DNA from: a virus
IMG/VR virus record: IMGVR_UViG_3300045988_165521
Reading direction: 5' to 3' (one strand)
Length of the DNA: 64,000 nucleotides
Made by a program: the position numbers and the translations under genes. Positions 1 through 20,424 of this stretch are shown piece by piece. The notes below the pieces were generated by a model. That model did no database searches and was not told the origin of the DNA. It saw only the letters and a program-made list of their open reading frames with translations. Position 1 is the first letter of the stretch; the number at the start of each line of letters is the position of its first letter.

Positions 1-195
1 TATTTTCCTGAAATAAAGTGTTGTATACAAGCAGTTAGATCTCTAAAACAAAACCATTGTAGTAATAATCAATGCTATAAGTCAACCAATTATTGTATTT
101 TGTTTTTACCTGCTTTCAATAAAAGTTGTCTTAAATATTATTTTTGGAGAGTTTCTTATCGTGTATTCTTAGAAGCTTCTTATGATAGAATATAA
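1..195 (+). CDS. Cys-rich small protein, tRNA-array paralog family (3' part; 5' end outside window)
   Basis: Frame 1 is open from the window edge to TAA 193-195. The tail ...CLKYYFWRVSYRVFLEASYDRI matches the Cys-rich body plus aromatic-Y-R-I/V tail of ORFs 291, 690, 928, 1145 and 10837. Confidence 0.5.
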   Translation, partial: YFPEIKCCIQAVRSLKQNHCSNNQCYKSTNYCILFLPAFNKSCLKYYFWRVSYRVFLEASYDRI

Positions 196-203
196 AATAT
201 AAT

Positions 204-276
204 TGGAATGTGGCTGAGTGGTTGAAGCACCAAACTGTTAATTTGGGTTACGTGGGTTCGAGCCCCACCGTTCCAG
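204..276 (+). tRNA. tRNA-Asn (anticodon GTT)
   Basis: Cloverleaf by eye: acceptor TGGAATG/CGTTCCA, anticodon arm CCAAA-CTGTTAA-TTTGG, T-arm GTGGG-TTCGAGC-CCCAC. Confidence 0.85.
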
Positions 277-290
277 CTAATATTAAACTT

Positions 291-551
291 ATGCAACAGA
301 TAAATACTTATGCAGAACTTAGAAAACTTAAACTAAATAAGTTATTCAAACATCCAACTTATAATATATATCAAGTTATTAAAAATAGAAATGCAGGATT
401 TTGTCAGGGTGGATCTAGTAATATTAACCAGTGTGGTTTTATGTATCGTACTAGTTTTAATAAGCCATTTTGTTATAGAGCATGTGTACAAGGAAAACAA
501 TATTTCTGGTATATAAAAATCAAATATAGAATTATACTAGATGATAAATAA
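291..551 (+). CDS. Cys-rich small protein, tRNA-array paralog family
   Basis: ATG 291 is used because the track start 210 lies inside tRNA-Asn. The N-terminus ELRKLKLNKLFKH parallels ELNKIKLNQLFKY of ORF 690. Four Cys, then YFWYIKIKYRIILDD. Confidence 0.6.
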   Translation: MQQINTYAELRKLKLNKLFKHPTYNIYQVIKNRNAGFCQGGSSNINQCGFMYRTSFNKPFCYRACVQGKQYFWYIKIKYRIILDDK

Positions 552-588
552 TTTGCTACAAATTTATTAACTTTTTGTGTTAAAATAC

Positions 589-679
589 GGAGGATTGAGC
601 CAAGTTGGACTAATGGCAGCACTCTTGAAAAGTGTAGGTCGCTTAAAACGGCGTGGGGGTTCGAGTCCCTCATCCTCCG
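589..679 (+). tRNA. tRNA-Ser (anticodon TGA, reads UCA)
   Basis: Acceptor GGAGGAT/ATCCTCC, anticodon arm GCACT-CTTGAAA-AGTGT, long variable arm, T-loop TTCGAGT. Confidence 0.85.
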
Positions 680-689
680 CAATAAATAT

Positions 690-935
690 ATGAAAACAGT
701 AGAAGATCTTACAGAACTTAACAAAATCAAGTTAAATCAACTATTTAAATATATAAATAACTATATATTCCAGGCTATTCGAAGTAAAAAACATTTCTAT
801 TGTTTTGATAATAAGAAGAATATTGGATGTAATTTATATAAGATTGGTCGTAGATGTAGCTTAGTTTGTATAAAATCTAAAGAAGAAAATTTCTGGTATA
901 TAAGAATCATATATAGAATTAGACTAGATGAGTAG
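690..935 (+). CDS. Cys-rich small protein, tRNA-array paralog family
   Basis: 81-aa ORF with four Cys and the tail NFWYIRIIYRIRLDE. Confidence 0.6.
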   Translation: MKTVEDLTELNKIKLNQLFKYINNYIFQAIRSKKHFYCFDNKKNIGCNLYKIGRRCSLVCIKSKEENFWYIRIIYRIRLDE

Positions 936-1161
936 AGATATTGTATTAAAATATTGGAAAATAATTAGATATAAAACTTTAATTATTCAATGTGTACCTG
1001 AAGGAACACCTATAAAAAGATTTTGTTATGAATCTTCTGTTGGAAAGCCATGTGCTTTTACAGGAAAGGCTTGTAGTGATTTTAAATGTATAGATAGAGT
1101 AGATGGTCTTCGAGTTAGGTATATTAAAATAGATCATAGAGTTTATGTCAGCAAAACATAG
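928..1161 (+). CDS. Cys-rich small protein, tRNA-array paralog family
   Basis: 77-aa ORF with multiple Cys and the tail LRVRYIKIDHRVYVSK. Confidence 0.55.
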   Translation: MSRDIVLKYWKIIRYKTLIIQCVPEGTPIKRFCYESSVGKPCAFTGKACSDFKCIDRVDGLRVRYIKIDHRVYVSKT

Positions 1162-1405
1162 AGTTTCTCAAATAATTCTATTATTTGGTTATAGATATCG
1201 ATTACATCAGGTTATTCTAGGTATACAAGGAGAATCATCGTGTTATATGAGTGTTATTAAAGGTAAATCTTGTATATTTCGTGAGTATAATAGAATAAAT
1301 GGTAAGACATGTTGTGTCGATATTGCATGTACTCCTTTAGAACGAAAAGATGATATTAGAGTACGTTATATTAAATTAGACTATCGAATTTATTTGTTTA
1401 AATAA
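1145..1405 (+). CDS. Cys-rich small protein, tRNA-array paralog family (start uncertain)
   Basis: Cys-rich ORF with the tail IRVRYIKLDYRIYLFK. The stop abuts tRNA-Trp. Confidence 0.5.
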   Translation: MSAKHRVSQIILLFGYRYRLHQVILGIQGESSCYMSVIKGKSCIFREYNRINGKTCCVDIACTPLERKDDIRVRYIKLDYRIYLFK

Positions 1406-1477
1406 GCACTCTTGATGTAACTGGTAACATGACAGTCTCCAAAACTGTTCTTTGGGGTTCGAATCCTTAAGAGTGTG
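1406..1477 (+). tRNA. tRNA-Trp (anticodon CCA)
   Basis: Acceptor GCACTCT/AGAGTGT (G1-U72), anticodon arm ACAGT-CTCCAAA-ACTGT, T-loop TTCGAAT, discriminator G. Confidence 0.85.
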
Positions 1478-1491
1478 CTTATATATAATTA

Positions 1492-1563
1492 GGGCTGTTA
1501 GTATAGTGGCTATTACATCTGGTTTGCAACCAGAAAACAGGGTTTCGATTACCCTACGGTCCA
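1492..1563 (+). tRNA. tRNA-Ala (anticodon TGC)
   Basis: Acceptor GGGCTGT/ACGGTCC contains the G3-U70 Ala identity pair. Anticodon arm TCTGG-TTTGCAA-CCAGA; T-arm AGGGT-TTCGATT-ACCCT. Confidence 0.85.
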
Positions 1564-1705
1564 CAATCTTCTGTAGATTAGGATTCTATACAGAAAGAGT
1601 ACTGTAATCTGTTAAGAGCTTATAAATCAGACGTTAAAGAAAAAAGTTTTCGGGGCTGAAGAGCCCTGCTATGAATCTAATCCTAGTAGAAATACTAGGA
1701 TTTTT

Positions 1706-1778
1706 GGAACTGCGGTGTGCTAGGTGCGCTCGCTGGACTGAAAATCCAGAGGTAAATGTTCGACTCATTTCAGTTCCG
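1706..1778 (+). tRNA. tRNA-Phe (anticodon GAA)
   Basis: Acceptor GGAACTG/CAGTTCC, anticodon arm CTGGA-CTGAAAA-TCCAG, T-arm AAATG-TTCGACT-CATTT. The D-arm region is irregular. Confidence 0.7.
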
Positions 1779-1867
1779 CACTATCGTCTTCCTTATTAAG
1801 TTTGGTAACACGTGCACTGCCTGTAAATCTTAATAATAGATATGCTTAGTACTTGTTTTTATTAATG

Positions 1868-1939
1868 GATGTATTAGCTCAGTGGTAGAGCTCTGGCAAG
1901 GAGTGCCAGAAGTCATAGGTTCGAATCCTATATGCATCC
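1868..1939 (+). tRNA. tRNA-like gene with aberrant anticodon loop AAGGAGT (nominal anticodon GGA, no U33); isotype undetermined
   Basis: Acceptor GATGTAT/ATGCATC, D-arm GCTC-AGTGGTA-GAGC, anticodon stem CTGGC/GCCAG, T-arm ATAGG-TTCGAAT-CCTAT. The variable loop is short, so it is not Ser-type. Confidence 0.6.
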
Positions 1940-2149
1940 CTTAAATCAAAAAATTATGATTATACCTCCAAATTTTTTAGTTAAAACTATTCCACTATAT
2001 AGTGAAGGAGATGTATCTACTCCACATGTAGTAATAAATTATCTTACAAGAAGTCTATTTTTATTCTTTTAAAATTTCCTCCGAATTGGAAATTGATAAA
2101 AGTTAAAGAAATAAAAGATAGAATTTTTATTAAAAATCTTGATTATAAG

Positions 2150-2245
2150 ATGACTATGGGTCTTATGGAAGCAAAACGAATTGTAGATGAATTAACTATA
2201 GAATATGATATGAATAATATCTATAGAATACGATTGGTAGAATAG
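2150..2245 (+). CDS. Possible mini-ORF carrying only the paralog-family tail (IYRIRLVE)
   Basis: ATG 2150 to TAG 2243-2245, overlapping the first 10 nt of the tRNA at 2236. Its tail resembles that of ORF 690. Confidence 0.25.
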   Translation: MTMGLMEAKRIVDELTIEYDMNNIYRIRLVE

Positions 2246-2307
2246 CCAAGTTGATAAGGCAGTGGTCTGCAACACCACGATCGCAGGTTTGAGTCCTGCT
2301 TCTACCT
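2236..2307 (+). tRNA. tRNA-Cys (anticodon GCA)
   Basis: Acceptor GGTAGAA/TTCTACC, anticodon arm GTGGT-CTGCAAC-ACCAC, T-arm GCAGG-TTTGAGT-CCTGC. Confidence 0.75.
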
Positions 2308-2310
2308 CTA

Positions 2311-2383
2311 AGCGAGTTGGAGAAGATGGTTACCTCGAGAGTTTCATAAGCTCTAGACCTCGGTTCAAATCCGAGACTCGCTA
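2311..2383 (+). tRNA. tRNA with anticodon CAT (Met, or Ile if lysidine-modified)
   Basis: Acceptor AGCGAGT/ACTCGCT, anticodon arm AGAGT-TTCATAA-GCTCT, T-arm CTCGG-TTCAAAT-CCGAG. Confidence 0.8.
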
Positions 2384-2400
2384 CACAAAATTTTAAAGTT

Positions 2401-2718
2401 ATGAGAAATATATTTAACGTACTTATATGGAATTTTAATACACAAACAATAGAAGAATATAATGTTATTCCATATTTTGTAAGAGAATGGAAAGAAGAAA
2501 AAGATAAATCTAAATTTAAGTCTTTTGATGATATTAAAGAATTTGTTAGAAGTAAATCTTTATATCAATTCTGGTCTCGATGTGAATATGAAATGATTGT
2601 TAAAGGATGGCCTGTAACTAAAAGAGAAATTAAATTAGATGTACATGAACAAATCATGATGAATCTTGATTTAGTTACACAAGTTTTTATAAATACTATT
2701 GGATGGAAAGTAAAGTAA
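2401..2718 (+). CDS. hypothetical protein
   Basis: 105-aa ORF, ATG to TAA, packed in the same orientation as its neighbours. Confidence 0.5.
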   Translation: MRNIFNVLIWNFNTQTIEEYNVIPYFVREWKEEKDKSKFKSFDDIKEFVRSKSLYQFWSRCEYEMIVKGWPVTKREIKLDVHEQIMMNLDLVTQVFINTIGWKVK

Positions 2719-2867
2719 AGAATATTTTGTTACTTTTAGAACAAAATGGATGATCTGATCTTATCGATAGTCGATGGGAACAACAGGTTAGAGAGGAAAT
2801 ATTAACAGCTTATCCTGATATTGATATAGATACTTTAGATAAGGTATTAGAAATTGTATTAATTTAA
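2703..2867 (+). CDS. hypothetical small protein (one in-frame TGA at 2751)
   Basis: ATG 2703 to TAA 2865-2867 is open only if TGA 2751-2753 is read through: MESKVKNILLLLEQNGWSDLIDSRWEQQ... Confidence 0.35.
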
Positions 2868-2879
2868 TTAGGATTACAA

Positions 2880-3155
2880 GTGAAAATAATTGTAAGTCCA
2901 GTTGACTATAATCACGATGAAACTGCAATTATATTTTACTGTAGAGCAAAAGATCGTGAGGATTATATGCGAGTATATGGTATTTTTGATACAGAACAAT
3001 TTGAAATTATTGAATCAAGAATTACTGATATAACTATTTTTAGAAAAATGGTTGAAAAACTTAACGATTTTGGATTTGAAAATGAAAAATATAAAGAAAA
3101 TAATCCTAATTTTGATATTAATATTGTTAAGCTCATGTGCAACAACAAAGTTTAA
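2880..3155 (+). CDS. hypothetical protein
   Basis: 91-aa ORF with a GTG start. Confidence 0.4.
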   Translation: MKIIVSPVDYNHDETAIIFYCRAKDREDYMRVYGIFDTEQFEIIESRITDITIFRKMVEKLNDFGFENEKYKENNPNFDINIVKLMCNNKV

Positions 3156-3221
3156 CTTAATGGTTGGTCCTACAGGTGAGGAACAGAAAACATATATAGA
3201 AAATATAAAACAGTATAAATA

Positions 3222-3470
3222 ATGATAATTATTATTTTCATTTTATTTTATTTACTTCCTATATTTTTAATTCATATCGTTGGATTATATTTTTGGAAGA
3301 AGCGCACTGATTGTGGGAAAACAATAGGAGATATGTATGAATATTATGATGCAGCTGATGGAAATCCTTTAGTAATTTTTACTTGGGTTCCTCTCGCTAA
3401 TATTTTTATATTATTAGCAGGACTTATTATATTTTTTATAAATTTAATGAGTAATATAAAAATTCGATAG
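3222..3470 (+). CDS. small membrane protein (paralog of 3472)
   Basis: Two hydrophobic helices. The central IGDMYEYYD motif parallels IGKIFEYWND in the next ORF. Confidence 0.5.
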   Translation: MIIIIFILFYLLPIFLIHIVGLYFWKKRTDCGKTIGDMYEYYDAADGNPLVIFTWVPLANIFILLAGLIIFFINLMSNIKIR

Positions 3471-3471
3471 G

Positions 3472-3735
3472 ATGTATACTTTTTTTGTTATTATTTTATG
3501 TTATATTATTCCTGTATTTATTAATGCTTTTCTTTTTGTTTTTGCTTATAAAGTAAGTCATAAAGAAAAGATTGCTATTGGAAAAATATTTGAATATTGG
3601 AATGATAAGTTTAGGGATAGTGATGGTGATAGTAGTCTTTGTCTATTTCTTTTTATTCCTGGAATGAATATACTATTTATACTCTATACCTTTTTCTTAT
3701 CATTGTATAACATATTTAAAAATATAGAAGTCTAA
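3472..3735 (+). CDS. small membrane protein (paralog of 3222)
   Basis: Same architecture as ORF 3222. Confidence 0.5.
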   Translation: MYTFFVIILCYIIPVFINAFLFVFAYKVSHKEKIAIGKIFEYWNDKFRDSDGDSSLCLFLFIPGMNILFILYTFFLSLYNIFKNIEV

Positions 3736-4115
3736 TGTTTACTTTTATTACAGGTCTAATTGCAGTTTTGGTATGTGGAGCTCTTATAGGATATGAACGA
3801 CAATTTAAATCTAAAATAATTGGAATTAGAACCTGTATATTAATTATGTTAGGTTCTTTTGTTTTTACATATATCTCAATTAAAATAGGTGGAGATCCGT
3901 CTAGAGTTGCTGCACAAATTGCTTCTGGTGTTGGTTTTATTGGCGCAGGTATAATATTTAAGAATGGAATTGATGATATTCGGCATTTAACTACAGCTGT
4001 ATTAGTTTGGGTATTAGCGGCTTTAGGTAGTTTAATTTCTCTTGGATATTTATTTGAATCGTTAATGATAACTGGAATAATCTATATAATCCTTAAAATA
4101 AAAATACTAAAATGA
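3735..4115 (+). CDS. mgtC: MgtC/SapB-family membrane protein
   Basis: GYERQ...IGIRT...GSF...QIASGVGFIGAGIIF...LTTA..VW..AALG matches MgtC family motifs. It ends at a TGA inside an ATGA overlap; if that TGA is read as Trp, the frame runs 17 more codons to a TAA. Confidence 0.7.
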   Translation: MFTFITGLIAVLVCGALIGYERQFKSKIIGIRTCILIMLGSFVFTYISIKIGGDPSRVAAQIASGVGFIGAGIIFKNGIDDIRHLTTAVLVWVLAALGSLISLGYLFESLMITGIIYIILKIKILK

Positions 4116-4369
4116 ACAAAATTGAAAAGCTGTACAGGTCTATGTATGAAAATGAATTACGTAAACTAAGAAAATGTGCAGAATCTGTTCAAAAACCTTC
4201 TCAATATGTTGTATTTAAAGCATGGAGTAAGGAAGTAATGGCTTACTTGTTTTTTAAAATAGATCGTTTAGATTATACTTGGGAATGGGAATATAAGGAT
4301 AAAATTGCAATGTTTATTCAGGATTGTCAAGAAATTGCTTTGCGAAAAGTAAAACTTAGTTCTAAATGA
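4112..4369 (+). CDS. hypothetical protein
   Basis: 85-aa ORF ending at a TGA within an ATGA overlap. Confidence 0.5.
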   Translation: MNKIEKLYRSMYENELRKLRKCAESVQKPSQYVVFKAWSKEVMAYLFFKIDRLDYTWEWEYKDKIAMFIQDCQEIALRKVKLSSK

Positions 4370-4613: not shown

Positions 4614-4626
4614 ATATTAATGGTTT

Positions 4627-4698
4627 GCGTCGTTGGTGTTAGTGATAGCATATTAGACTTCCAATCTAAAGGGGAGAGTTTGAATCTCTTACGACGCT
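4627..4698 (+). tRNA. tRNA-Gly (anticodon TCC)
   Basis: Acceptor GCGTCGT/ACGACGC, anticodon arm TTAGA-CTTCCAA-TCTAA, T-arm GAGAG-TTTGAAT-CTCTT. Confidence 0.85.
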
Positions 4699-4720
4699 CT
4701 AAAGTGAATAATGAATATTG

Positions 4721-5449
4721 ATGAAAACTATTAAAGAACTTTCAGATAGACAAATTAAACTTGCGTGAATTAGTAGTAAAAGTTTATATGAAATTTGTAA
4801 AAAATTAGAAATTCACGATAATACTTATAATAGAAAATATTTAAGAGTTTGAGGAGTTAAGGAAGGACTAAAAATTCCTGTTTTTACACGATTTACTAAA
4901 ACAGATTATATAAAAAATCCTAAATTGTGTAAAAAATGTAAAAAACCTATTCCTTGAAATCAAAGAGAAAATAACTTCTGTTCTCACTCTTGTGCAACTA
5001 GTTATACAAATATAAAAAGAGGTGCTATAACTAGTGGTAAATATGTCAAAAATGCAACTAGTAAATGCTTAAATTGTGGAAAGGAAATTTTTGCAAGAAA
5101 TAAATATTGTAGTATTATTTGTCAAGTTGAATTTAAATATAAGGAGTATATTCAAAGGTGGAAAGACGGGAAAGAAACAGGAATGTCTGGTACAGATGGT
5201 CTTTCAAATCATATAAGAAAATATTTATTAGATAAGACTAATTATACTTGTGAAATTCCAGGGTGTGGATGCAATTTTATTAATCCTTATACTGGATTAT
5301 CTATTTTGCAAATTCATCATATAGATGGAGATGCAACTAATAATAAAGAGCAAAATCTTCAGGTTTTATGTCCTAATCATCATGCTATGACAGAACATTT
5401 TGGCTCCAGAAATAAAAATAGTACTAGAAAGTATCGTTATAAAAAGTAA
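4721..5449 (+). CDS. HNH homing endonuclease (free-standing; 3 in-frame TGA)
   Basis: A single frame from ATG 4721 with TGA at 4766, 4850 and 4955. Zn-ribbon CxxC pairs and the C-terminal HHIDGD...N...LCPNHH motif. Confidence 0.75.
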
Positions 5450-5476
5450 TTACCCACTCTAATAAATTTTAAAAAC

Positions 5477-8299: not shown

Positions 8300-8719
8300 A
8301 TGAAAACATTACTTTGGGTGGACGATGCTCGTAATCCTCTTGAGAATGATTGGTTAAATTTTAGTCCTATCGGTCGAAACTGTTTTGTAATATGGGCGCA
8401 AACTTATCAAGAAGCAATACAATTTCTTGAAAAAGACTGGCCTGATGCAATTTGTCTTGATCACGATTTAGGAGAAGAAGAAAGCGGTTATGATATAGCT
8501 AAATATATTGTAAATCGTTGTATTGATGAGGGAAAGAAACTTCCATTATTTGCAAGTCAATCTGCAAATCCTGTAGGTAGAGAGAATATCTTAAGATTGT
8601 TTAAAAATTATCAAAAACAGGAATTATTAGAACATGTTCAAGAAGCAGTTCAATATAAACATGATTGGTTAAATGCTGTTGAAAATGGTACAGAAATTCC
8701 CAAAAAGAGACGAATGTAG
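8300..8719 (+). CDS. receiver(REC)-like domain protein
   Basis: LLWVDD...DAICLDHDLG...GYDI pattern. The assignment is weak. Confidence 0.4.
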   Translation: MKTLLWVDDARNPLENDWLNFSPIGRNCFVIWAQTYQEAIQFLEKDWPDAICLDHDLGEEESGYDIAKYIVNRCIDEGKKLPLFASQSANPVGRENILRLFKNYQKQELLEHVQEAVQYKHDWLNAVENGTEIPKKRRM

Positions 8720-9032
8720 AATTCTTTATCATATAACCTTAAAAGAAAATTTAGATAGTATTTTAGATAAAGGACTTATTCCAGATATTGGTTCTCAGTG
8801 TACTCATTGTAAAAATGATAATCCAACTGAGAAGTTAGTTTATATGACTGATTTAGAAGGAATTGCTAAATGGAAGAAAGCGTTATATGGTAATAGTAAT
8901 TCTTGTGTAATTCTTGAAGTTAATACTCTTAATCTTGAAATAATCTATCGCAGAAAGTTTGTTGAAGGAACTGAATATGCATGTAAAGAAACTATTTTAC
9001 CTGACAGATTAAAGATTATAACTCTTAAATGA
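8685..9032 (+). CDS. hypothetical protein
   Basis: ORF ending at a TGA within an ATGA overlap. Start uncertain. Confidence 0.4.
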   Translation: MVQKFPKRDECRILYHITLKENLDSILDKGLIPDIGSQCTHCKNDNPTEKLVYMTDLEGIAKWKKALYGNSNSCVILEVNTLNLEIIYRRKFVEGTEYACKETILPDRLKIITLK

Positions 9033-9217
9033 AAAATTTTATTCAACATGTTGTTTATAGTCATAGAGAGGGATTACGTTGGTACTTTAAATCAACAGAG
9101 CGTAAAGGTACATTTGTAATTTCTTTATATCCTTGGGATATTAGACTTTTAAAATATGGACTTTATTTACTAATTCCACCTCTTAAAGAGACTCATATTA
9201 AAGGCAACTGGAATTAA
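9029..9217 (+). CDS. hypothetical protein
   Basis: 62-aa ORF. Confidence 0.35.
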   Translation: MKNFIQHVVYSHREGLRWYFKSTERKGTFVISLYPWDIRLLKYGLYLLIPPLKETHIKGNWN

Positions 9218-9226
9218 AAAAGGTAT

Positions 9227-9309
9227 GCCCACGCAGCAGAGTTGGAGATCTGCACGAAACTGTAAATTTCGCGTCTCAGACTAATGAGGTTCGAATCCTC
9301 ACGGGGGCA
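9227..9309 (+). tRNA. tRNA-Tyr (anticodon GTA)
   Basis: Anticodon arm CGAAA-CTGTAAA-TTTCG, long variable arm (bacterial type II), T-arm TGAGG-TTCGAAT-CCTCA. There is one A-G mismatch in the acceptor stem. Confidence 0.8.
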
Positions 9310-9332
9310 CAAAATAATAAAAATTGCAAATA

Positions 9333-9854
9333 ATGAAAAATTTTCAAGTAACTTCAAAAGAAGATAATCAAAAATACTGGATTTCGAGGTCTTGTGCAGT
9401 TGCTATGTTTCTATTTTCTAGAGATAAATTTGGAAACTTATGTATTTTAGCAAATAAACGTGGTACTGGAACTCCTGATTTTCAAGGATATTGGAATTGT
9501 CCTTGTGGTTATATAGACTTTGATGAAACTGGAGAAGATGCCGTTTGCAGAGAAATTATGGAAGAAACAGGATATGTAATTACTCCTGAAGTTCCTAAAT
9601 TTGTAGAGGTTGAAACAAGTCCAAAGGCTAATAAGCAAAATATTACTCTTAGATATACTGCTTTAGTACCTTATAAATTACTTTCTCAAGTTAAACCTAT
9701 TGGAGGCGAAGATAATGAAGTTGAAGAGGTTAAATGGATTGATATAAGAAAATTAAACAACTATAAATGGGCATTTAATCACAACAAAATAATTGAAAGA
9801 ATTATACTTTTAAAACAATATATACAAAATGACAGACATAAACACTTTAGCTAA
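9333..9854 (+). CDS. NUDIX hydrolase
   Basis: Nudix box GYIDFDETGEDAVCREIMEETGY. Confidence 0.8.
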   Translation: MKNFQVTSKEDNQKYWISRSCAVAMFLFSRDKFGNLCILANKRGTGTPDFQGYWNCPCGYIDFDETGEDAVCREIMEETGYVITPEVPKFVEVETSPKANKQNITLRYTALVPYKLLSQVKPIGGEDNEVEEVKWIDIRKLNNYKWAFNHNKIIERIILLKQYIQNDRHKHFS

Positions 9855-10386
9855 AAGTGGTTGGTATGAAACTAATCACGATAAGTATAAGTATGTTTAC
9901 TTAGAGCTTGATTATAGTAAAAAAATTAACAAGTTTGTATTTTCAGGCTGTTTAAGCCCTCAAGGGTTAGCTTATTTTCCACTTCCTAATCAAATTTATA
10001 GAGAACCAGATAGTGGAAATATGTTTTGTATCCCTTTTACATTATTTTCGCTTGTAAAATTTTGTGACGGGACTTTACTTCCACTAGTTTTAACTGAAGA
10101 CTTAGTAAAAAGGTACGCAGATCCTGAAAATATTGTTCTAACTTCTTTATGTATTAATATCTCTCGTTATGCAAGTAGTTTAGACTTTAGTACTATTCAT
10201 CTTACTCGAGATACTCCTTTAAGAAATCTCTTGAGTGAAGAGGCATTAAGAGTTGTTACTGGTAGTATGTTTGATTATTTTATGATAAGTGTATTAGAAC
10301 ATAAGAAGGAGTTTGATGAGCTTAACACTTCTCATTCAAATATAGAGTCTTTCATTAAGGTAATCTTAAAAATAATAGACTTATAA
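9829..10386 (+). CDS. hypothetical protein
   Basis: 185-aa ORF. Confidence 0.5.
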   Translation: MTDINTLAKSGWYETNHDKYKYVYLELDYSKKINKFVFSGCLSPQGLAYFPLPNQIYREPDSGNMFCIPFTLFSLVKFCDGTLLPLVLTEDLVKRYADPENIVLTSLCINISRYASSLDFSTIHLTRDTPLRNLLSEEALRVVTGSMFDYFMISVLEHKKEFDELNTSHSNIESFIKVILKIIDL

Positions 10387-10387
10387 A

Positions 10388-10705
10388 ATGTTTACTTTTA
10401 TTATTCTTTATTTTTTAAACTTAGTTCTAGATTATCCATTGCAAGGAACATTTCTTGCAGAATATAAATGTAAAAATAATTATATTTTATTTGTTCATTG
10501 TGCTATTTGGGCATTAGGTATTTATATTGCTTTATATTTTCTAGGGCTAGCTACAGTTTGGAAACTTGTAATGTTATTAGTTGGACATTATCTTATTGAC
10601 TACTGGAAATGTAGAGGCTTATATAAGAAATATATGAAAGACTTTACCGCTTATTATATTGATCAAAGTCTTCATATTGTTCAGGTTCTACTTTGTTTAA
10701 TATAA
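10388..10705 (+). CDS. hypothetical membrane protein
   Basis: Three hydrophobic segments. Confidence 0.5.
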   Translation: MFTFIILYFLNLVLDYPLQGTFLAEYKCKNNYILFVHCAIWALGIYIALYFLGLATVWKLVMLLVGHYLIDYWKCRGLYKKYMKDFTAYYIDQSLHIVQVLLCLI

Positions 10706-10732
10706 AACAAGTTCTATAAAAACTTGTTTTTT

Positions 10733-10821
10733 GGAGAGTTGGGGGAGTTGGCTTAACCCATCGTCCTGCTAAGACGACGTACCTCAAAAGGGTGCCACTA
10801 GTTCGAATCTAGTACTCTCCG
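10733..10821 (+). tRNA. tRNA-Ser (anticodon GCT)
   Basis: Acceptor GGAGAGT/ACTCTCC, anticodon arm TCGTC-CTGCTAA-GACGA, long variable arm. Confidence 0.85.
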
Positions 10822-10836
10822 CAAATTTAAAATAAC

Positions 10837-11103
10837 ATGAGTAAACTAATAATTAATAAACATCAAATTTGTTATATACCAGAATACAATTTATATTTAC
10901 AGAGAGTAGGAGTAGATAATACAAGCGTTCGTCATACTTGTGAACGTATATGTTCGATTTATCAGATCTGTAGGTATGGTTATTGTCGTAATAAGACTAT
11001 AGACCCACATTATGGTAATCATGGTTGCGCAGATAACGGAGAGCAAGACGCTTATAAAATTATTTGTTATAGAATATACTTAGAACCTATAGAATGGAAA
11101 TAG
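10837..11103 (+). CDS. Cys-rich small protein, tRNA-array paralog family (distal copy)
   Basis: Many Cys and the tail AYKIICYRIYLEP. It lies directly after tRNA-Ser. Confidence 0.5.
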   Translation: MSKLIINKHQICYIPEYNLYLQRVGVDNTSVRHTCERICSIYQICRYGYCRNKTIDPHYGNHGCADNGEQDAYKIICYRIYLEPIEWK

Positions 11104-11852
11104 CAAATTTAAAGGTATATAATGATAATATGCGAAAATCACTTTTAGATAAAGCATATTTTCTATCTTTTGTAGATTCGGATACGTTCATTGATTTTGG
11201 ATGTGCTGATGGATCTTTATTAAAATATATTCATGAGATGTTTCCTGATAAGAAACTAATTGGATATGATATATCTCCTGAAATGCTTCAAGTTGCAGAA
11301 AAGAATCTTGAAGGATGTAATGTTTCTTTATATAATAATTTTGAAAACGTTATATCCTTAAAGTTAGATAATGCTACTTTAATACTTTCTTCTGTTATTC
11401 ATGAAGTTTATAGTTACGGTGATAATCAAAGTGTAAATGAATTTTGGAGACAAGTTTTTAATGAAAACTTTAGATATATTGCTATTCGAGATTTAACTCC
11501 TCGAAAATCAATTGATAGAATGTCTGATATTAATGATGTTTCTAGAGTTTTACATAATGCTAATCCCACACATTTAGCTGAGTTTCAATCTATTTGGGGA
11601 AATATTAGTAACAATAAAAATCTAGTTCATTTCCTTATGAAATATAAATGGGTTGAAAATTGGGCTAGAGAAGTTAGAGAAAATTATTTTCCAATAACTA
11701 TCGAAGAGTTTTTATCAAAAGTTCCTAATAACTATGTTATTGATTATTTTTACGAATTTATTATGCCTCAAACTCAGCAAGGAATTCTTAAAGATTTTAA
11801 TATCCTATTAAAGGATACAACACACTTCAAATGCATTTTAAGAAAAATATAA
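11094..11852 (+). CDS. SAM-dependent methyltransferase
   Basis: Motif I FIDFGCADGSL. Confidence 0.6.
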   Translation: MEIANLKVYNDNMRKSLLDKAYFLSFVDSDTFIDFGCADGSLLKYIHEMFPDKKLIGYDISPEMLQVAEKNLEGCNVSLYNNFENVISLKLDNATLILSSVIHEVYSYGDNQSVNEFWRQVFNENFRYIAIRDLTPRKSIDRMSDINDVSRVLHNANPTHLAEFQSIWGNISNNKNLVHFLMKYKWVENWAREVRENYFPITIEEFLSKVPNNYVIDYFYEFIMPQTQQGILKDFNILLKDTTHFKCILRKI

Positions 11853-11853
11853 T

Positions 11854-12144
11854 ATGAAAGTAGTACAAGTAAATGTGGATTACACTGAAGAAGTTAATTC
11901 TTCGAATAAGAATTGGTTAAATTCTGATTCTAGGCATTGTGATATCTTAGTTAGAAGTGATGATGCAGAAACTATTAAGTATAGTGGAACTTTATCTCAA
12001 TCACAAGTAGAACATATCGTGTTTCTAATTCAAGATAATTATTCTGGAAAAGATATTAAAGATCAAATTATCGAATATGAAGTTCAAAATCTATCTCCTA
12101 CAGTAACTTCTCAGATTGGAGATCCTGAATTTTTAGAAGAATAA
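11854..12144 (+). CDS. hypothetical protein
   Basis: 96-aa ORF. Confidence 0.45.
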   Translation: MKVVQVNVDYTEEVNSSNKNWLNSDSRHCDILVRSDDAETIKYSGTLSQSQVEHIVFLIQDNYSGKDIKDQIIEYEVQNLSPTVTSQIGDPEFLEE

Positions 12145-12166
12145 TAGAGAGATTTACTCTCTATTT

Positions 12167-12253
12167 GCCCTCGTGATGGAACTGGCAGACATGCCGCTCT
12201 TAGAAAGCGGTCTGAAGTAATAGTAGGGTGCAGGTTCAAATCCTGTCGAGGGC
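12167..12253 (+). tRNA. tRNA-Leu (anticodon TAG)
   Basis: Acceptor GCCCTCG/CGAGGGC, anticodon arm CCGCT-CTTAGAA-AGCGG, long variable arm, discriminator A. Confidence 0.85.
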
Positions 12254-12298
12254 ACTCTAATAGCTTCCTATCTTGGAGGCATTTTCTATTTTATAGAT

Positions 12299-13042
12299 AT
12301 GTTTAAGTTTATTAAAAAGATGTTTAACAATAGAAATATTCTAACTAAAAACTTATATAAAGTAAAGTTAGATAAATATGATGAAGCTCTGATTATTATT
12401 TGTAAAGCTTTAGGAGTAAACTTACTAAAAGCAAATTTCTTCCATATAGATTCTTATACAAAAGTAATGAAATCATATGGCTCTTTGATAACTATTATTG
12501 ATTTTGATAATGCTATTGATTTAATTTTTGGTAATTTAAGTTCTAAAAGAAATCATGACGAAATTGTTTTACAATACATGATTAAGGTTATGCAGCTTCC
12601 TTCTAGTGTTATTGATAATGATAGATTTTATCGTAGTATTCATAGGACCTTTAATAAGATTTCTGTGTATTATTCTAAAGAAGATAAATTTACATGGTTT
12701 CAAGAATATTGTCAAAAATTTATAAAACCTGAATGGTCTAATTCTTTTTGCTTTTACTATAAATCTGCAGAATTTTATGTAACTTTTTATCAAGGATATT
12801 TTAAATATAAACGTAAACAGGAAGACTATCGAAGAAAAAGTAGAGAGAATTATCAATCTCAAAAACAACCTAATATAAATGAGTATTATAGAATACTTGG
12901 AATTAATATTACTAAAGATAAGGCTATTATCAAAACTGCTTATCGTAAGTTGTGTTTTCAGTATCATCCTGATAAAGGAGGCTCTAAGGAAAAGTTTATT
13001 GAAATTAATCAAGCATATGAATATTTAATTACACATGTCTAA
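12299..13042 (+). CDS. J-domain (DnaJ-like) protein
   Basis: C-terminal YYRILGI...AYRKLCFQYHPDKGG with the HPD motif. Confidence 0.8.
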   Translation: MFKFIKKMFNNRNILTKNLYKVKLDKYDEALIIICKALGVNLLKANFFHIDSYTKVMKSYGSLITIIDFDNAIDLIFGNLSSKRNHDEIVLQYMIKVMQLPSSVIDNDRFYRSIHRTFNKISVYYSKEDKFTWFQEYCQKFIKPEWSNSFCFYYKSAEFYVTFYQGYFKYKRKQEDYRRKSRENYQSQKQPNINEYYRILGINITKDKAIIKTAYRKLCFQYHPDKGGSKEKFIEINQAYEYLITHV

Positions 13043-13295
13043 AATGTATAAATTAATGAGTCTTAAAGGCTATAACGGGCCTGAAGATGTAATAAAACTT
13101 CAAGAATGGTTAGCTATAGAAAAACAAATATTTATTGAGACAAGAGTGTGTTGGAATAAAGAAGGAACTTTCCCTATTGGATATAGTGCAAGAGCTTGGA
13201 TGCCTCCGTATATATTATATACAGTAGCTCCAACAGAATTAACTATTGAAGAAGCAGTTATGGCAATTCTAGCAAGAATTTATGATTATATTTAA
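13035..13295 (+). CDS. hypothetical protein
   Basis: 86-aa ORF. Confidence 0.45.
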   Translation: MSKMYKLMSLKGYNGPEDVIKLQEWLAIEKQIFIETRVCWNKEGTFPIGYSARAWMPPYILYTVAPTELTIEEAVMAILARIYDYI

Positions 13296-13346
13296 ATAAT
13301 CTTGCTCCCGTAGTTCAAGGGATAGAAATTAATTTTTGATTCGAAC

Positions 13347-13378
13347 TTTGTATTTTTAATAAAATTTTTGTATCTTTG
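13347..13378 (+). promoter_or_regulatory. Bacteroidota-type promoter (TTTG-N20-TATCTTTG) for the HNH gene
   Basis: TTTG 13347-13350 and TAnnTTTG box 13371-13378, 28 nt upstream of ATG 13406. Confidence 0.55.
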
Positions 13379-13405
13379 TGTACGAAAATTTTAAATATAA
13401 AATAT

Positions 13406-14017
13406 ATGATAAGTTGAAAATTAGAAAAAGAAAATTTAATTAAGTTCCTTATTGATGAAAAATTAAGTTTTGAAGAAGTAGGTCGTAAGTATAAATGTAG
13501 TGGTAGCAATATTAGAAAAGTAGCACAACGTTTAAATATAATTGTTCCTTCTAGAAGAGCAGTAAATCCATGCGAAACTTTTAGAAGAGGAACTGCTAAA
13601 AAAGGTATCTGTAAGAACTGTGGAAAAGAATTTATATTATATTTATCTCATAGCGGAATTTATTGTAGTAGTAAATGTCAACAAGAGTACCAATCTAAGA
13701 AAAGATATGAATTAATTCTTAATGGAGATCCTTCTATTATGAGAGCTAATTATAACCCTAGATCATCTAAGAAGTATATATTAGAGGAACAGAATAATAA
13801 ATGTGCCATTTGTGGGATGGAACCCAGTTGAAATGGGAAAGAGTTAGTTTTTATTTTAGATCATATTGACGGTCATGCTTCTAATAATAAAAGAGATAAT
13901 TTAAGATGTATATGTCCTAATTGCGATTCTCAGTTGGATACTTACAAATCTAAAAATAAAAACGGAGACAGATATTATTATAGATACTATAAAAGTAGGA
14001 GTGACCAGAATGGATAA
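13406..14017 (+). CDS. HNH homing endonuclease (free-standing; 2 in-frame TGA)
   Basis: A single frame with TGA at 13415 and 13829. LDHIDGHASNN...NLRCICPNCDS motif. It is a paralog of ORF 4721, and its 3' end overlaps tRNA 13995 by 23 nt. Confidence 0.75.
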
Positions 14018-14081
14018 TGGACCAGACTTCTAATCTGGCGAGCTGCAATGCTCATTGCGGGTTCGACTCCCGCCTCCTATA
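13995..14081 (+). tRNA. tRNA with anticodon TCT (nominally Arg) but a type II long-variable-arm architecture
   Basis: Acceptor GTAGGAG/CTCCTAT (G1-U72), anticodon arm CCAGA-CTTCTAA-TCTGG, 18-nt variable region containing hairpin GAGC-TGCAAT-GCTC, T-arm GCGGG-TTCGACT-CCCGC, discriminator A. Confidence 0.7.
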
Positions 14082-14097
14082 CTAAATAAATATAACT

Positions 14098-15238: not shown

Positions 15239-15249
15239 AATTTAATATA

Positions 15250-16029: not shown

Positions 16030-16057
16030 GAGGGATTAATTCCCTCTTTTTGTTTTT
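16029..16057 (+). terminator. Rho-independent terminator
   Basis: AGAGGGA-TTAAT-TCCCTCT followed by TTTTTGTTTTT. Confidence 0.7.
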
Positions 16058-16063
16058 ATAAGT

Positions 16064-16201
16064 ATGGGTAAGTTTATTCGGGATTATCAAGTTGGTAAGA
16101 CATTTAGTAAAGAAGAGGAAACTTTTAAGCCTAATCGTAAAAAGGTAAAAAAGTTTAAAGACCCTGAAAAACGTGAAAAGAAACAATCTAAAAAAGATTA
16201 A
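16064..16201 (+). CDS. small basic protein
   Basis: 45-aa Lys-rich ORF. Confidence 0.35.
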   Translation: MGKFIRDYQVGKTFSKEEETFKPNRKKVKKFKDPEKREKKQSKKD

Positions 16202-16204
16202 AAG

Positions 16205-17245: not shown

Positions 17246-18420
17246 TGGCAGAGATAATTTATTGTAAATTAACTGAAACTAGATCTCGAAGAACTTGGCA
17301 AATATTGCCTAAGCAGTATTTTCCTGACAAAACTCCTGTTTATGAATTAGCTGTATCTATTTCTCAGTATACAATTGATAGGGTACAACATCCTTTTGAT
17401 TGTATAGTTGGATTATATGCTAAACAGCTAAATTTTGCATCAACACAAAAGTATTATTCTTATTCTGGAGACGTATATTCAATAGCGGATAATCCTGAGG
17501 CAGATTCTGGATATCAAAAATACCTTAAAAATAGGGATAAGACTCCTGAAGAAATAGAAGAGGAAGAAGCTAAATTAAAGTCAAAAGTTTTATATCAAAT
17601 TAAAAATAATCCTGATATAGTTCCTATGTCTATTGATAAAGATGGTTTCTATATTAAGGATGAAACTTTTTATCTACTTACTCGAAATATTTATAAACGT
17701 GTAAATACAATGCTAACTGGTCCTACTGGATCTGGTAAAACACAAGTAGTAGAATTAATTTGTAAGCAATTAGGACTTCCTTGTACTATTTATGATATGG
17801 GTGCCATGCATGATCCTATATCAGACTTACTTGGTGTTCATCGTCTCGAAGAGGGGAAGTCTATCTTCGACTATGCTAAATTTACTCAAGATGTTCAAAA
17901 ACCTGGAGTTATTGTTTTAGATGAGCTGTCGCGTGCGCCTGCTACCTGCCTCAATATACTTTTTCCTGCTCTTGACCATCGTAGGACTTTGCCTGTAGAA
18001 ATTGCAGGTTCTAAGGATATTCGTGAAATTCCTATTCATCCTGAAGTATGCTTTATATCAACTTGTAATATTGGTATTGAATATACTGGTACCTCAACTC
18101 TTGATAAAGCATTAAAGAATCGTTTCTTCCCAATTGAATTTACATATCTTCCTGCAGACATTGAAGCTCGAGTTCTCATGAAGAGATGTGATATTGAGAA
18201 ACAGGATGCTGATATGATTACTTCTATTGCTGCTAAACTTCGTAGGATGGCAGAAAATGCAGAGGCTGCAACTACAGTATCAACTCGAGAAACTTTAATG
18301 ATTGCAGAATTAATTCATGATGGATGGTCAACATTAGATGCATTAAATTATGTATTAATTCCACTATGTGATAGTAAAGAGTCTCGAGAATTAGTACGAA
18401 AATTGTTAATGAGTAAATAA
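17245..18420 (+). CDS. AAA+ ATPase, CobS/MoxR-like
   Basis: Walker A GPTGSGKT, Walker B VLDELSRA. Confidence 0.6.
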   Translation: MAEIIYCKLTETRSRRTWQILPKQYFPDKTPVYELAVSISQYTIDRVQHPFDCIVGLYAKQLNFASTQKYYSYSGDVYSIADNPEADSGYQKYLKNRDKTPEEIEEEEAKLKSKVLYQIKNNPDIVPMSIDKDGFYIKDETFYLLTRNIYKRVNTMLTGPTGSGKTQVVELICKQLGLPCTIYDMGAMHDPISDLLGVHRLEEGKSIFDYAKFTQDVQKPGVIVLDELSRAPATCLNILFPALDHRRTLPVEIAGSKDIREIPIHPEVCFISTCNIGIEYTGTSTLDKALKNRFFPIEFTYLPADIEARVLMKRCDIEKQDADMITSIAAKLRRMAENAEAATTVSTRETLMIAELIHDGWSTLDALNYVLIPLCDSKESRELVRKLLMSK

Positions 18421-18421
18421 T

Positions 18422-20368
18422 ATGTCATTTACTGACTGGTTTGGGCGTAAAGGTAAGAATTATACATCTACTTATAAAGGATCTACTCGTTTAGGGTGGG
18501 ATACTAAAGTAAGTGGATCGTATTCTTCTTTCTTTGCACCTGATTTAAACAAAAGAAAGCTTTTAAGAGATTCCTATCGTCACGCATGTGATATTAGGGA
18601 TATTATGGATATTCCAAGAAATATTCGAATACAGTTAAATGTAGACACAGAAACTTCATGTACAGATGGAAAAACAGTTATTGTTTCTACTAAAGTATAT
18701 GATGATAATAAAATCGATAATAATGTTAAATTAGATGTATTCTTAGGTACAACTATTCATGAATTTTCTCACATATTATATACAGATATGGCAGAAATTC
18801 GTAAAAATAGACCTAATAAGTTCCTTTTTAATCTGTTCAATACTATTGAAGATGAACGAATTGAATACAATACTACACAAAATTATCCTGGGTATGCTAA
18901 TTTTATTGGGCAAGCAAAATATTATTATTTTGATTTGTTATATAAAAAAGCTGAAAAACAGGATGATTTAATGGATGTATTACAAAACATTTTATATATT
19001 GTAAGATATCCTGCAAGAGTAGATACTAAGGTTATTTATCGACATCAGGTTTTGTTTGATAAAATTAAGAAAGTTCTTTGTGACTTTGGAAATAATTCTA
19101 AAGAAGCTTATGATAAAGCAGAAAAAATTTATAAGCTATTACTAGATTACTTTAAGTTCCCACCTCCTCCGCCTGAAGAACAACAAGAAGGAGATGAAGA
19201 ACAAGATCAATCTGATTCTAGTGAAGGACAGTCTGATTCAGGTGAAGGCCAAGAAGGATCAGACGGAAGTTCTGACCCTCAAAATTCTAAACAGTCTTCT
19301 CAAAAACAAGATTCTAAAGATAATGAAGGATCAGATAAGAATAGTAAAACACAAAGTTCTCCCAAAAGTGGTTCTGATGAGGGATCTGCGGGCAAAAAGA
19401 AACAAGAACCTATTAAAGCATATACTCAAGAAGAAATAAAACAGGCAGCTGAGAAATTAGCTGAACAAATGCGACGTTTAATTACTTCTAATACTTCTTT
19501 AAATAGTAATGAAATTAAAGATGAGTGGGATTCTAAAGAAATTGCTGATGAGTGTAAGCAAATAAAAGATGATGTTTTTATTGTAAAACAAGAAGATTAC
19601 GAAAGACGTTATAAAGCGGATTTTGATACAGTAAAACAACATATTAATGGTTTAGTTAATACTTTTAGCAAATTCTTTGTTGAACAGGAATATCGTTTAA
19701 CAGGAATGCGAAGAGGTGTGCTAGATACTAATAAATTAGCTGAAGCTTATCAAGCAGTAGAAACTGTCTATTCAAATAAGTTTAAACGTACTACTCCTGG
19801 TTTAGATGTTTGTGTATTGATTGATGAGAGTGGCTCTATGAGCGGAACTAATATCGCATCTGCAAGAAAATGTGCAATATTACTTAATGAGGTATTTTTA
19901 CGTTTAAAGCAATGTGACTTTTATGTTTATGGTCATACTGCAGATAATCGACATATGGGAGAAGTTACTATTAATGTATATCGTGATCACTGGAATAGGA
20001 ACCGTTATGCTTTAGGTAAAGTTGAAAGTTATTCTAATAACAAAGACTCTGTTGCTATTGAAGAGACATATAAAATGGTTAGAAAGCAAACTTCGAAACC
20101 ACTTTTAATGTTTGTAATTTCTGATGGAGCACCTAATGCATATGGTTTAAGAGGACAACCTGCTGTAGAGGAAGTTAAAAAGGTAGTAAATAGAATTGAA
20201 TCAAATGGAGATACTCTAGTTTGTCAAATTGCTATTGAAAGCCACTTCCGACCTCAGGATATGTTTAATCATTATGTTGTCATGACAGATATGAATACTT
20301 TTCCAAGTGACTTATCTGGATACGTTATGAATACGTTAATATCTAAACTTAAAAGAGTAGATGTTTAA
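18422..20368 (+). CDS. vWA-domain protein, CobT-like
   Basis: A central acidic Ser/Gln-rich tract and a C-terminal MIDAS DESGSMSG. Confidence 0.6.
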   Translation: MSFTDWFGRKGKNYTSTYKGSTRLGWDTKVSGSYSSFFAPDLNKRKLLRDSYRHACDIRDIMDIPRNIRIQLNVDTETSCTDGKTVIVSTKVYDDNKIDNNVKLDVFLGTTIHEFSHILYTDMAEIRKNRPNKFLFNLFNTIEDERIEYNTTQNYPGYANFIGQAKYYYFDLLYKKAEKQDDLMDVLQNILYIVRYPARVDTKVIYRHQVLFDKIKKVLCDFGNNSKEAYDKAEKIYKLLLDYFKFPPPPPEEQQEGDEEQDQSDSSEGQSDSGEGQEGSDGSSDPQNSKQSSQKQDSKDNEGSDKNSKTQSSPKSGSDEGSAGKKKQEPIKAYTQEEIKQAAEKLAEQMRRLITSNTSLNSNEIKDEWDSKEIADECKQIKDDVFIVKQEDYERRYKADFDTVKQHINGLVNTFSKFFVEQEYRLTGMRRGVLDTNKLAEAYQAVETVYSNKFKRTTPGLDVCVLIDESGSMSGTNIASARKCAILLNEVFLRLKQCDFYVYGHTADNRHMGEVTINVYRDHWNRNRYALGKVESYSNNKDSVAIEETYKMVRKQTSKPLLMFVISDGAPNAYGLRGQPAVEEVKKVVNRIESNGDTLVCQIAIESHFRPQDMFNHYVVMTDMNTFPSDLSGYVMNTLISKLKRVDV

Positions 20369-20387
20369 TTTGTATATTTTCAGATTT

Positions 20388-20422
20388 TTTACTACCTTTG
20401 CTGTATAACTAAAGGTAGTAAA
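20388..20422 (+). other. 12-bp hairpin immediately upstream of the suppressor tRNA
   Basis: TTTACTACCTTT-(11 nt)-AAAGGTAGTAAA with no T-run after it. It could be a processing or regulatory element. Confidence 0.4.
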
Positions 20423-20424
20423 AT

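Follow-up and report, generated by a model that had tools for sequence, protein, structure and literature searches.

In the published model for dual-coding gut phages, early genes in the standard code are followed by a phage suppressor tRNA that unlocks the recoded genes (Ivanova, Yutin, Borges, and Pfennig; PMC7886860; bioRxiv 10.1101/2021.08.26.457843; bioRxiv 10.1101/2022.06.29.495998). The code switch usually tracks the strand switch, the unrecoded genes include those for replication and transcription, and the suppressor is found at the 5' end of the recoded strand (Pfennig/Mgcod; bioRxiv 10.1101/2022.06.29.495998). According to Borges et al. (bioRxiv 10.1101/2021.08.26.457843), the use of alternative codes is variable in replication genes, those of Lak phages being mostly recoded (Fig. 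S5 legend), and an intron endonuclease inside an early gene is preferentially recoded. TGA has been reported in a PolB gene from the Zeta group of crAss-like phages (Yutin et al.; PMC7886860) and in the helicase and RNA polymerase genes of a Zeta phage and in "DNA-processing enzymes" (PMC12386605). Here we analyze a 64,000-nucleotide stretch of the IMG/VR virus record IMGVR_UViG_3300045988_165521 (the window), in which a nearly TGA-free block of genes ends close to a gene for a suppressor tRNA with the anticodon UCA, tRNA(UCA), and about half of the genes beyond it use TGA for tryptophan (Trp).

Distribution of in-frame TGA codons

Genes were called as code-4 open reading frames (ORFs), filtered by a codon-usage coding score, and overlaps were resolved; single genes are named below by their start positions. 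Left of position 20425, where the suppressor tRNA gene begins, 3 of the 41 genes contained a sense-like in-frame TGA, with 6 TGA codons against 72 TGG codons. Once the HNH endonuclease genes were set aside, only 1 of 39 genes (1 TGA versus 71 TGG) remained. To the right of the tRNA, sense-like TGA was found in 29 of 60 genes (77 TGA versus 102 TGG). The two sides differed significantly both in the number of genes with TGA (Fisher p = 8.4e-6) and in the TGA density per gene (Mann-Whitney p = 3.9e-5), and the probability of finding any 41-gene window equally poor in TGA was 1.3e-4 (0.013% of shuffles). The genome therefore holds a contiguous part without in-frame reassigned stops.

A sequence-only reading had proposed such a partition, with a left arm that is translatable in the standard code and a remainder that depends on the suppressor. 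Its core stood: the partition is real, and TGA is read as Trp. We found the partition to be under selection as well, and to recur in diverged relatives with a tRNA(UCA) at or near the boundary. The notion of an arm, the uniformity of the recoded remainder, and the contrast drawn with the literature were overstated. The nine large left-side genes it named (5477, 9829, 11094, 12299, 14342/14381, 15250, 16205, 17245, and 18422) have 0 in-frame TGA and 1 to 4 TGG each, and the TGA-bearing left frames are those it listed: HNH genes 4718/4721 and 13406, the 54-aa ORF 2703, and the disrupted paralogue 4366. The long right-side genes 42857, 56933, and 38052 lack TGA, as it stated. Its claim that most downstream genes carry TGA fails when all genes are counted (48%) and holds for genes of at least 200 codons (63%).

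We favor, with modest confidence, dual-code gating in a crAss-like phage as the explanation, with an intron-split tRNA(UCA) unlocking the TGA-containing genes. Purifying selection holds the initial ~45 kb of the forward-strand array TGA-free, and because this block is without in-frame TGA, an unmodified standard-code host could translate it. The tRNA(UCA) gene at its far end, with an intron in its anticodon loop, would be transcribed and its product spliced and charged with Trp. Mature tRNA(UCA) would then make the TGA-containing genes translatable, that is, about half of the replication module and the large virion genes on the reverse strand. TGA would thus gate a defined set of genes at the level of translation. 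The order of expression, the splicing, the charging enzyme, and the standard code of the host are parts of this scheme that we infer; on the first and the last of these, the strong avoidance of TGA bears only indirectly. A host with code 4 or 25 was considered and rejected, since phages of such hosts carry TGA in ~90% of their genes (Borges) and would not keep a 45-kb TGA-free block.

What had been taken for a left arm (positions 1 to 20368, + strand, 41 called genes) is the last ~20 kb of a TGA-poor, standard-code-compatible block of ~45 kb, which begins ~25 kb upstream of the window and includes host-takeover genes. When we walked upstream in a close relative, the TGA-poor region opened near the start of the forward-strand array, and in contig L045 it is preceded by a gene on the - strand. 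The suppressor tRNA of the relative is at contig position 44,936, and the 72 genes called ahead of it contain 13 TGA versus 111 TGG; most of these 13 are in HNH genes, at stop-like positions, or in doubtful small ORFs. The upstream part of the block encodes more tRNAs (~26 in the whole block), a transfer-messenger RNA (tmRNA), a ClpP-like protease, an SPFH protein, an RNA ligase, and AAA ATPases.

Beyond the suppressor tRNA, the replication and nucleotide-metabolism module (21746 to 59314, + strand) is not uniformly recoded and consists of a gene-by-gene mosaic. The core replication enzymes do carry in-frame TGA, in agreement with the sequence-only reading. TGA/TGG counts were 7/0 in the superfamily 2 (SF2) helicase 28598, 4/0 in the DnaB-like helicase 30476, 4/1 in the Toprim primase 34646, 4/8 in the class II ribonucleotide reductase (RNR) 39667, 2/0 in the ATP-dependent ligase 44217, and 4/4 in the DNA polymerase 48003. 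TGA is absent from the ferritin-like gene 26031 (0/4), the exonuclease 38052 (0/4), a dGTP-pyrophosphohydrolase-like gene (0/6), the Dda/RecD-like helicase 42857, and 56933. A DUF2201 metallopeptidase was also identified by Pfam. Pfam domains run across in-frame TGAs in the helicase, DnaB, RNR, and ligase, and the coding score carries on across sense-like TGAs.

The reverse-strand block opens with a 1478-aa gene (59419 to 63855, - strand) that contains 13 TGA and 7 TGG; in relatives, it adjoins a 2941-aa gene with 22 TGA and 7 TGG. From left to right, the genome thus comprises ~45 kb of nearly TGA-free genes, the suppressor tRNA, ~39 kb of mosaic replication and nucleotide-metabolism genes, and a recoded reverse-strand block. 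The code switch at ~20.4 kb and the strand switch at ~59.4 kb do not coincide.

The window part of the TGA-poor block includes Pfam matches to a methyltransferase (11094), DnaJ (12299), an HD domain (14342), GMP reductase/IMPDH (16205), a MoxR/CobS-like AAA protein (17245), and CobT/VWA (18422). It also holds the 13 tRNAs that had been counted besides the suppressor, 12 of them detected by ARAGORN. A cluster at 204 to 2384 (+ strand; ARAGORN, Rfam) comprises tRNAs for Asn, Ser, Trp(CCA) at 1406-1478, Ala, Phe, Ser, Cys, and Met. Four more ARAGORN tRNAs are scattered over 9227 to 14082 (+ strand): Tyr at 9227-9310, Ser at 10733-10822, Leu at 12167-12255, and Arg at 13995-14082. Rfam (51.5 bits) adds a tRNA at 4627-4698 (+ strand) with the anticodon loop CUUCCAA (UCC, Gly), which ARAGORN misses. 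Coding density at the start of the forward array (L044, 1-9000) is very low, 0.16 to 0.48 per 5 kb for ORFs of at least 45 aa, and tRNAs are scattered there. The tmRNA gene predicted by ARAGORN at L028 444-822 (= L040 9600-9978), with the tag peptide ANNIFSRIINKVETALFGDIEGVALMAA, is ~17 kb upstream of the window in relatives, inside the TGA-free block and near the RNA ligase and ClpP-like protease genes.

Besides the HNH genes, the only sense-like TGA in the window part of the block is in the 54-aa ORF (2703 to 2867, + strand; 1 in-frame TGA), which is conserved in a relative contig. Three further TGAs, at 4113, 4367, and 9030, are probably true stops, because they form ATGA stop/start overlaps and the coding signal falls past them. 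They end the + strand genes 3735-4115 (overlapping the next start), 4112-4369 (followed by the disrupted paralogue from 4366), and 8673-9032 (overlapping ORF 9029-9217). The use of TGA as a stop was rejected as a discriminator between the blocks, since similar ATGA cases recur on the recoded side (23829 and 52492; L068 and L071). Gene 51733 closes with a tandem in-frame TGA-TGA (52492-52497), and TAA follows three codons on. In a genome that reads through single TGAs, the tandem may serve to reinforce termination.

Tryptophan coding and selection on codon choice

Several lines of sequence comparison indicate that TGA codes for Trp. In the solved structures of two class II reductases, a conserved Trp stands opposite codon 228 of the RNR gene, a TGA. 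Four of the seven TGAs of the SF2 helicase match an invariant Trp among 98 homologues and the remaining three match W/F/L/Y, evidence that is partly circular because the database proteins may themselves be code-4 translations. Codon alignments with two relatives of 45 to 85% protein identity avoid this circularity: in them, TGA in the window stood opposite TGA 44 times, TGG 8 times, and any other single codon at most twice; TGG stood opposite TGG 49 times and TGA 13 times. TGA and TGG are thus each other's commonest substitution. In the TGA-using genes, TGG alone accounts for 0.54% of codons versus 1.1 to 1.2% elsewhere, and TGA and TGG together account for 1.49%. The Trp-equivalent frequency is therefore normal only when TGA is counted, which supports the assignment. 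An alignment with cr4_1, made to the same end, gave too few aligned positions.

Base composition does not explain the partition. G+C content (GC; 0.29) and third-position G+C content (GC3; 0.15 to 0.165) are equal in the left block, the TGA-free right genes, and the TGA-using right genes, and the A-ending share of the Lys, Glu, Gln, Leu, and Arg codon pairs (0.74 to 0.91) is alike in all three classes. Mutation pressure toward TGA is therefore alike everywhere, and the partition is no composition artefact. The ratio TGA/(TGA+TGG) is 0.10 in the left block, 0 in the TGA-free right genes, and 0.64 in the TGA-using genes.

Comparison with related genomes showed that both the TGA-poor block and the per-gene use of TGA are conserved. 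The presence or absence of TGA in each gene was conserved in relatives of 45 to 85% identity (Fisher 8e-6, 3e-3, and 6e-3). L068 and L069 shared the TGA/TGG state of the window at 85% and 77% of conserved Trp positions, respectively, versus 50% expected, and in mixed genes 35 of 49 Trp positions agreed in state. At conserved Lys, Glu, and Gln positions, the third-base A/G match was 0.59 to 0.73 versus 0.55 to 0.71 expected, that is, saturated. Because the state of Trp codons has been kept though synonymous sites are saturated, we conclude from these alignments that the TGA/TGG pattern is upheld by purifying selection, which acts on whole genes at least and apparently on single sites too. Events of TGG/TGA polymorphism among 13 close relatives were too few for analysis.

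These data also bear on the possibility of a historical accident, in which the left block would be accessory DNA recently gained from standard-code sources and TGA would not yet have accumulated in it. Accessory and variable genes abound in the block, the genes beside the tRNA vary by lineage (CobS/CobT in the window, amidoligase/GATase in the L069-L073 lineages), and many indels separate close relatives, among them 20766-21449 and 13255-14079. However, GC, GC3, and codon bias are the same as in the rest of the genome, and the TGA-free status persists in lineages with saturated synonymous sites. Homologues of left-block genes 16205, 8249, 3735, 7623, and 7789 are TGA-free in further lineages, and the sole TGA-rich genes within the block are truly mobile homing endonuclease genes. 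We regard a recent acquisition as highly improbable.

The HNH homing endonuclease gene at 4718-5449 (+ strand; Pfam HNH_3) has three in-frame TGAs within the TGA-free block, and the HNH gene at 13406-14017 (+ strand) has two; the latter is mobile, as segment 13255-14079 is missing in relatives L012 and L014. Homing endonuclease genes (HNH, LAGLIDADG, GIY-YIG, and a PDDEXK_5 intron ORF) rank among the most TGA-rich genes, even inside TGA-free regions, with TGA/TGG examples of 7/0, 8/1, and 6/1; besides the two in the window, they are found at L074 1523-2632 and 8235-9056, L075 8307-9332, and L068 409-894.

That these genes are the most TGA-rich wherever they are located would suit a containment lock instead of a timer. 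On that account, TGA silences phage genes that are toxic or costly (those for nucleases, homing endonucleases, replication, and the virion) in cells without the phage suppressor, and the suppressor might harm the host through read-through of host TGA stops. Host read-through or anti-defence roles have been proposed (Yutin et al., PMC7886860; PMC12386605). The account, which we consider very unlikely as the principal explanation, leaves the long contiguous TGA-free block unexplained; it overlaps with dual-code gating and does not exclude it.

The intron-split tRNA(UCA)

The suppressor tRNA gene (+ strand) consists of a 5' exon (20425 to 20457), a group-I-like intron of 346 nt (20458 to 20803) between U34 and C35 of the anticodon, and a 3' exon (20804 to 20863) with a long variable arm that ends in the loop CUCCAAA. 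In the predicted spliced form, the joined exons give a 93-nt cloverleaf with the anticodon UCA in the loop CUUCAAA. At the splice junction, CTT/...TAAG/CAAA, the 5' site follows a U, the last intron base is G, and the exons join into the cloverleaf; a P1 helix and guide sequence could not be assigned in the intron. The anticodon stem covaries across variants (GCGGT/ACCGT, CTGGT/ACCAG, and GAGGT/ACCTC), which supports the spliced form. We rejected the alternative that the gene encodes a normal tRNA-Trp(CCA) interrupted between positions 26 and 27, since the UCA hairpin occupies the canonical anticodon site and has a covarying stem, and A26 would be an atypical base to precede a 5' splice site.

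Because of the intron, standard tRNA detection overlooks this gene. ARAGORN with default settings and Rfam at its gathering threshold both miss it, and the intron mode of ARAGORN labels it tRNA-Ala(cgc). Intron-hidden suppressors may explain the opal-recoded Zeta crAss-like genomes for which no suppressor is listed (PMC12386605, Table 1). That Borges et al. (bioRxiv 10.1101/2021.08.26.457843) detected a suppressor in just 35% of TGA-recoded genomes may have the same cause. The point matters for genome annotation.

In most of the syntenic lineages that we examined, the intron-split tRNA(UCA) is found at the first TGA-using gene or up to ~6 kb ahead of it, and a conserved 28-nt intron/3'-exon junction was found in 43 IMG/VR contigs. 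TGA/TGG counts upstream and downstream of the tRNA were 0/11 and 32/36 in L069, 3/38 and 26/20 in L070, 0/7 and 41/31 in L072, and 0/10 and 51/29 in L073; for L071, in whose stretch the tRNA was not found, the equivalent boundary gave 0/32 and 33/17. In the syntenic contigs L078, L097, L099, L105, and L109, the upstream TGAs were all in HNH homologues. The association between tRNA and boundary is common in this phage family, though neither exact nor universal.

The loop of the variable arm (about 20813-20838), CUCCAAA, exactly matches that of the anticodon in the phage tRNA-Trp(CCA) at 1406-1478. The arm is also present in L004, L068, L069, L070, L073, and L076-L118. Across ~17 variants of the 3' exon in the 43 contigs, we counted at least nine different, fully compensated variable-arm stems around the loop core U-CCA-(A/C); in two variants, the long arm gives way to a short variable loop. 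Introns of the window type start with CGAATTGGAG, in which UUGGAG is complementary to CUCCAA. From its sequence, the loop could be an anticodon mimic for tryptophanyl-tRNA synthetase (TrpRS) or an exon-intron pairing site. The literature searched contained no description of a variable-arm CCA loop on a suppressor.

A mimic of this kind is part of a bolder, quite unlikely reading, a three-tier program timed by RNA processing. Host-takeover and translation-support genes in the standard code would form tier one; replication genes and then virion genes would form later tiers, unlocked once the intron-split tRNA(UCA) self-splices. The U-CCA-A copy of the tRNA-Trp anticodon loop on the variable arm would let the host TrpRS charge tRNA(UCA) despite its altered anticodon. 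If true, the copy would be a previously undescribed suppressor design and would account for the "missing" opal suppressors of many recoded phages.

Directly upstream of the suppressor tRNA is a conserved 10-bp hairpin (20390 to 20420, + strand) with the arms TACTACCTTT ... AAAGGTAGTA and the loop gctgtataact, kept in L004, L070, and L073 despite differing flanking genes; it could be a processing or promoter element. Downstream, a variable segment (20871 to 21613, + strand) holds two small TGA-containing ORFs, 20871-21446 and 21449-21613, and is followed by a terminator-like hairpin at 21612-21637 (+ strand) with an 11-bp stem and a T run. Segment 20766-21449 is replaced in many close relatives. 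In L004-L009, L011, L012, and L014, which are 96 to 99% identical elsewhere, the acceptor stem of the tRNA is AGGAGCT, not GCGAGCT, the 3' exon differs, and ORF 20871-21446 is missing; this tRNA allele matches that of the far more distant L070. The tRNA-intron cassette appears, by its sequence, to be exchanged between lineages.

Proposed dual-code gating and its closest known counterparts

Dual-code gating has to be weighed against a number of observations that count against it. The maximum-likelihood two-segment change point is gene 20871, the first after the suppressor tRNA, and the boundary is resolved only to a few kb because the likelihood is nearly flat from ~18.4 to 24.9 kb. In L078, L097, L099, L105, and L109, the TGA-free stretch runs ~6 kb beyond the tRNA to an RNase H homologue; in L100 and L106, the same tRNA cassette is found amid TGA-rich DNA on both sides; and no tRNA(UCA) was found in the stretches examined of L071, L074, and L075. 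The close relative L013 has a TGG-to-TGA change at codon 18 of the left-block gene 17245. The match of the intron to Rfam RF00028 (19.8 bits, E = 0.012) is under the gathering score of 50, with P7 and P3/P8 motifs visible. A promoter class that separates the blocks was not found in a sigma-70-type scan (103 sites versus 105.8 expected), nor did intergenic k-mer enrichment give a motif that does so. Finally, TGA-using and TGA-free genes on the right side are interleaved at random (runs test P = 0.66).

This last observation bears on the level at which a gate would act. A simple scheme of early and late operons fails for the right side, because its TGA-free and TGA-using genes are unclustered, and the mosaic fits translation-level gating of single genes better than early and late operon blocks. 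Because the right side is a mosaic, tuning of the expression level also stays alive as an explanation. Suppression competes with release factor 2, so TGG would be kept in genes whose output must be high or free of errors, low-need genes would tolerate or exploit TGA, and the left block would be a mere run of genes of the former kind; selection would then act on translation efficiency, not timing. TGA use on the right is strongly bimodal per gene (P<5e-5) as well as spatially unclustered, its per-gene pattern is conserved in relatives, and TGA makes up just 0.64 of Trp codons in TGA-using genes versus 0.75 to 0.9 for other A-ending pairs, which suggests a general cost. However, a contiguous, nearly TGA-free run of ~45 kb and ~70 genes would be hard to obtain gene by gene. 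This run ends near the suppressor gene in several lineages with differing flanking genes, and the very large virion genes are heavy in TGA. We consider efficiency without timing unlikely and continue to prefer dual-code gating.

The window is an internal piece of a crAss-like genome of ~174 kb, judging from its close IMG/VR relatives and its polymerase. More than 12 IMG/VR contigs are 96 to 100% identical to it, the largest being 174,492 bp, and its 649-aa DNA polymerase is 60 to 64% identical to polymerases of Suoliviridae crAss-like phages. Phage polymerases are known to be exchanged. G+C content across the window is 27 to 33%, and the genes change from the + to the - strand at ~59.3 kb. With TGA read as sense, the summed ORFs of at least 100 aa grow from 13,310 to 19,301 residues and the enzymes become full-length. 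The GenBank phage collection contained no close DNA relative of the window, only distant protein matches; homologues of the helicase led to more distant relatives on contigs of 145 to 176 kb. The traits of the Zeta group (genomes of 145 to 192 kb, many tRNAs, introns, and homing endonucleases) are found in the phage and its relatives. Its size, tRNA load, and mobile-element load fit Zeta-group membership; the marker genes (TerL, the major capsid protein, portal, and RNA polymerase) are outside the window.

The phage adds a case to the accepted dual-code model and no new principle; it refines which genes can be gated. It offers a clean, statistically robust, and conserved two-dialect genome with a switch point ahead of the replication genes, not at the late genes, and the retention of TGA or TGG at single codons past synonymous saturation is direct evidence that the codon choice is functional and not drift. 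The earlier contrast with the literature on replication genes was overstated, since recoded replication genes had already been reported in Lak phages and Zeta crAss-like phages.

Like the block-wise dual-coding gut phages (Ivanova 2014, Yutin 2021, Borges 2021/2022, and Pfennig), this phage reads TGA as Trp, has its own suppressor tRNA at the head of the recoded part, keeps part of its genome without reassigned stops, and preferentially recodes its homing endonucleases. In those phages, the switch is usually at the strand switch and replication genes are unrecoded, whereas here the switch is inside the forward strand, ~39 kb ahead of the strand switch, and the recoded side takes in the helicases, primase, RNR, ligase, and DNA polymerase, in a replication module whose recoding is a conserved gene-by-gene mosaic. 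Replication genes are also in the alternative code, and mostly so, in Lak megaphages, but these are unrelated to the window phage, reassign TAG, exceed 500 kb in genome size, and have scattered recoded modules.

Group I introns occur in the anticodon loops of bacterial tRNAs, for example in cyanobacterial tRNA-Leu(UAA). The intron of tRNA(UCA) resembles the latter in its insertion after U34, its terminal G, and exons that rebuild a normal anticodon stem-loop; it differs in that its host gene is a stop-codon suppressor and in its subthreshold Rfam score.

The closest counterparts are the opal-suppressing Zeta crAss-like phages (Lera, c815351, and others; PMC12386605; Yutin 2021), which share the ~160- to 190-kb genome, the tRNA block at the start of the forward array, the many homing endonucleases and introns, and TGA for Trp, including in helicase and polymerase genes. 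Several Zeta genomes have opal suppression but no detected suppressor tRNA, and an intron-split gene like the one described here may have been missed in them by standard tRNA finders. In contrast to what we found, the Zeta papers place TGA chiefly in structural genes (18% of Lera ORFs), and they describe neither a TGA-free block that ends at the suppressor nor an intron in the suppressor.

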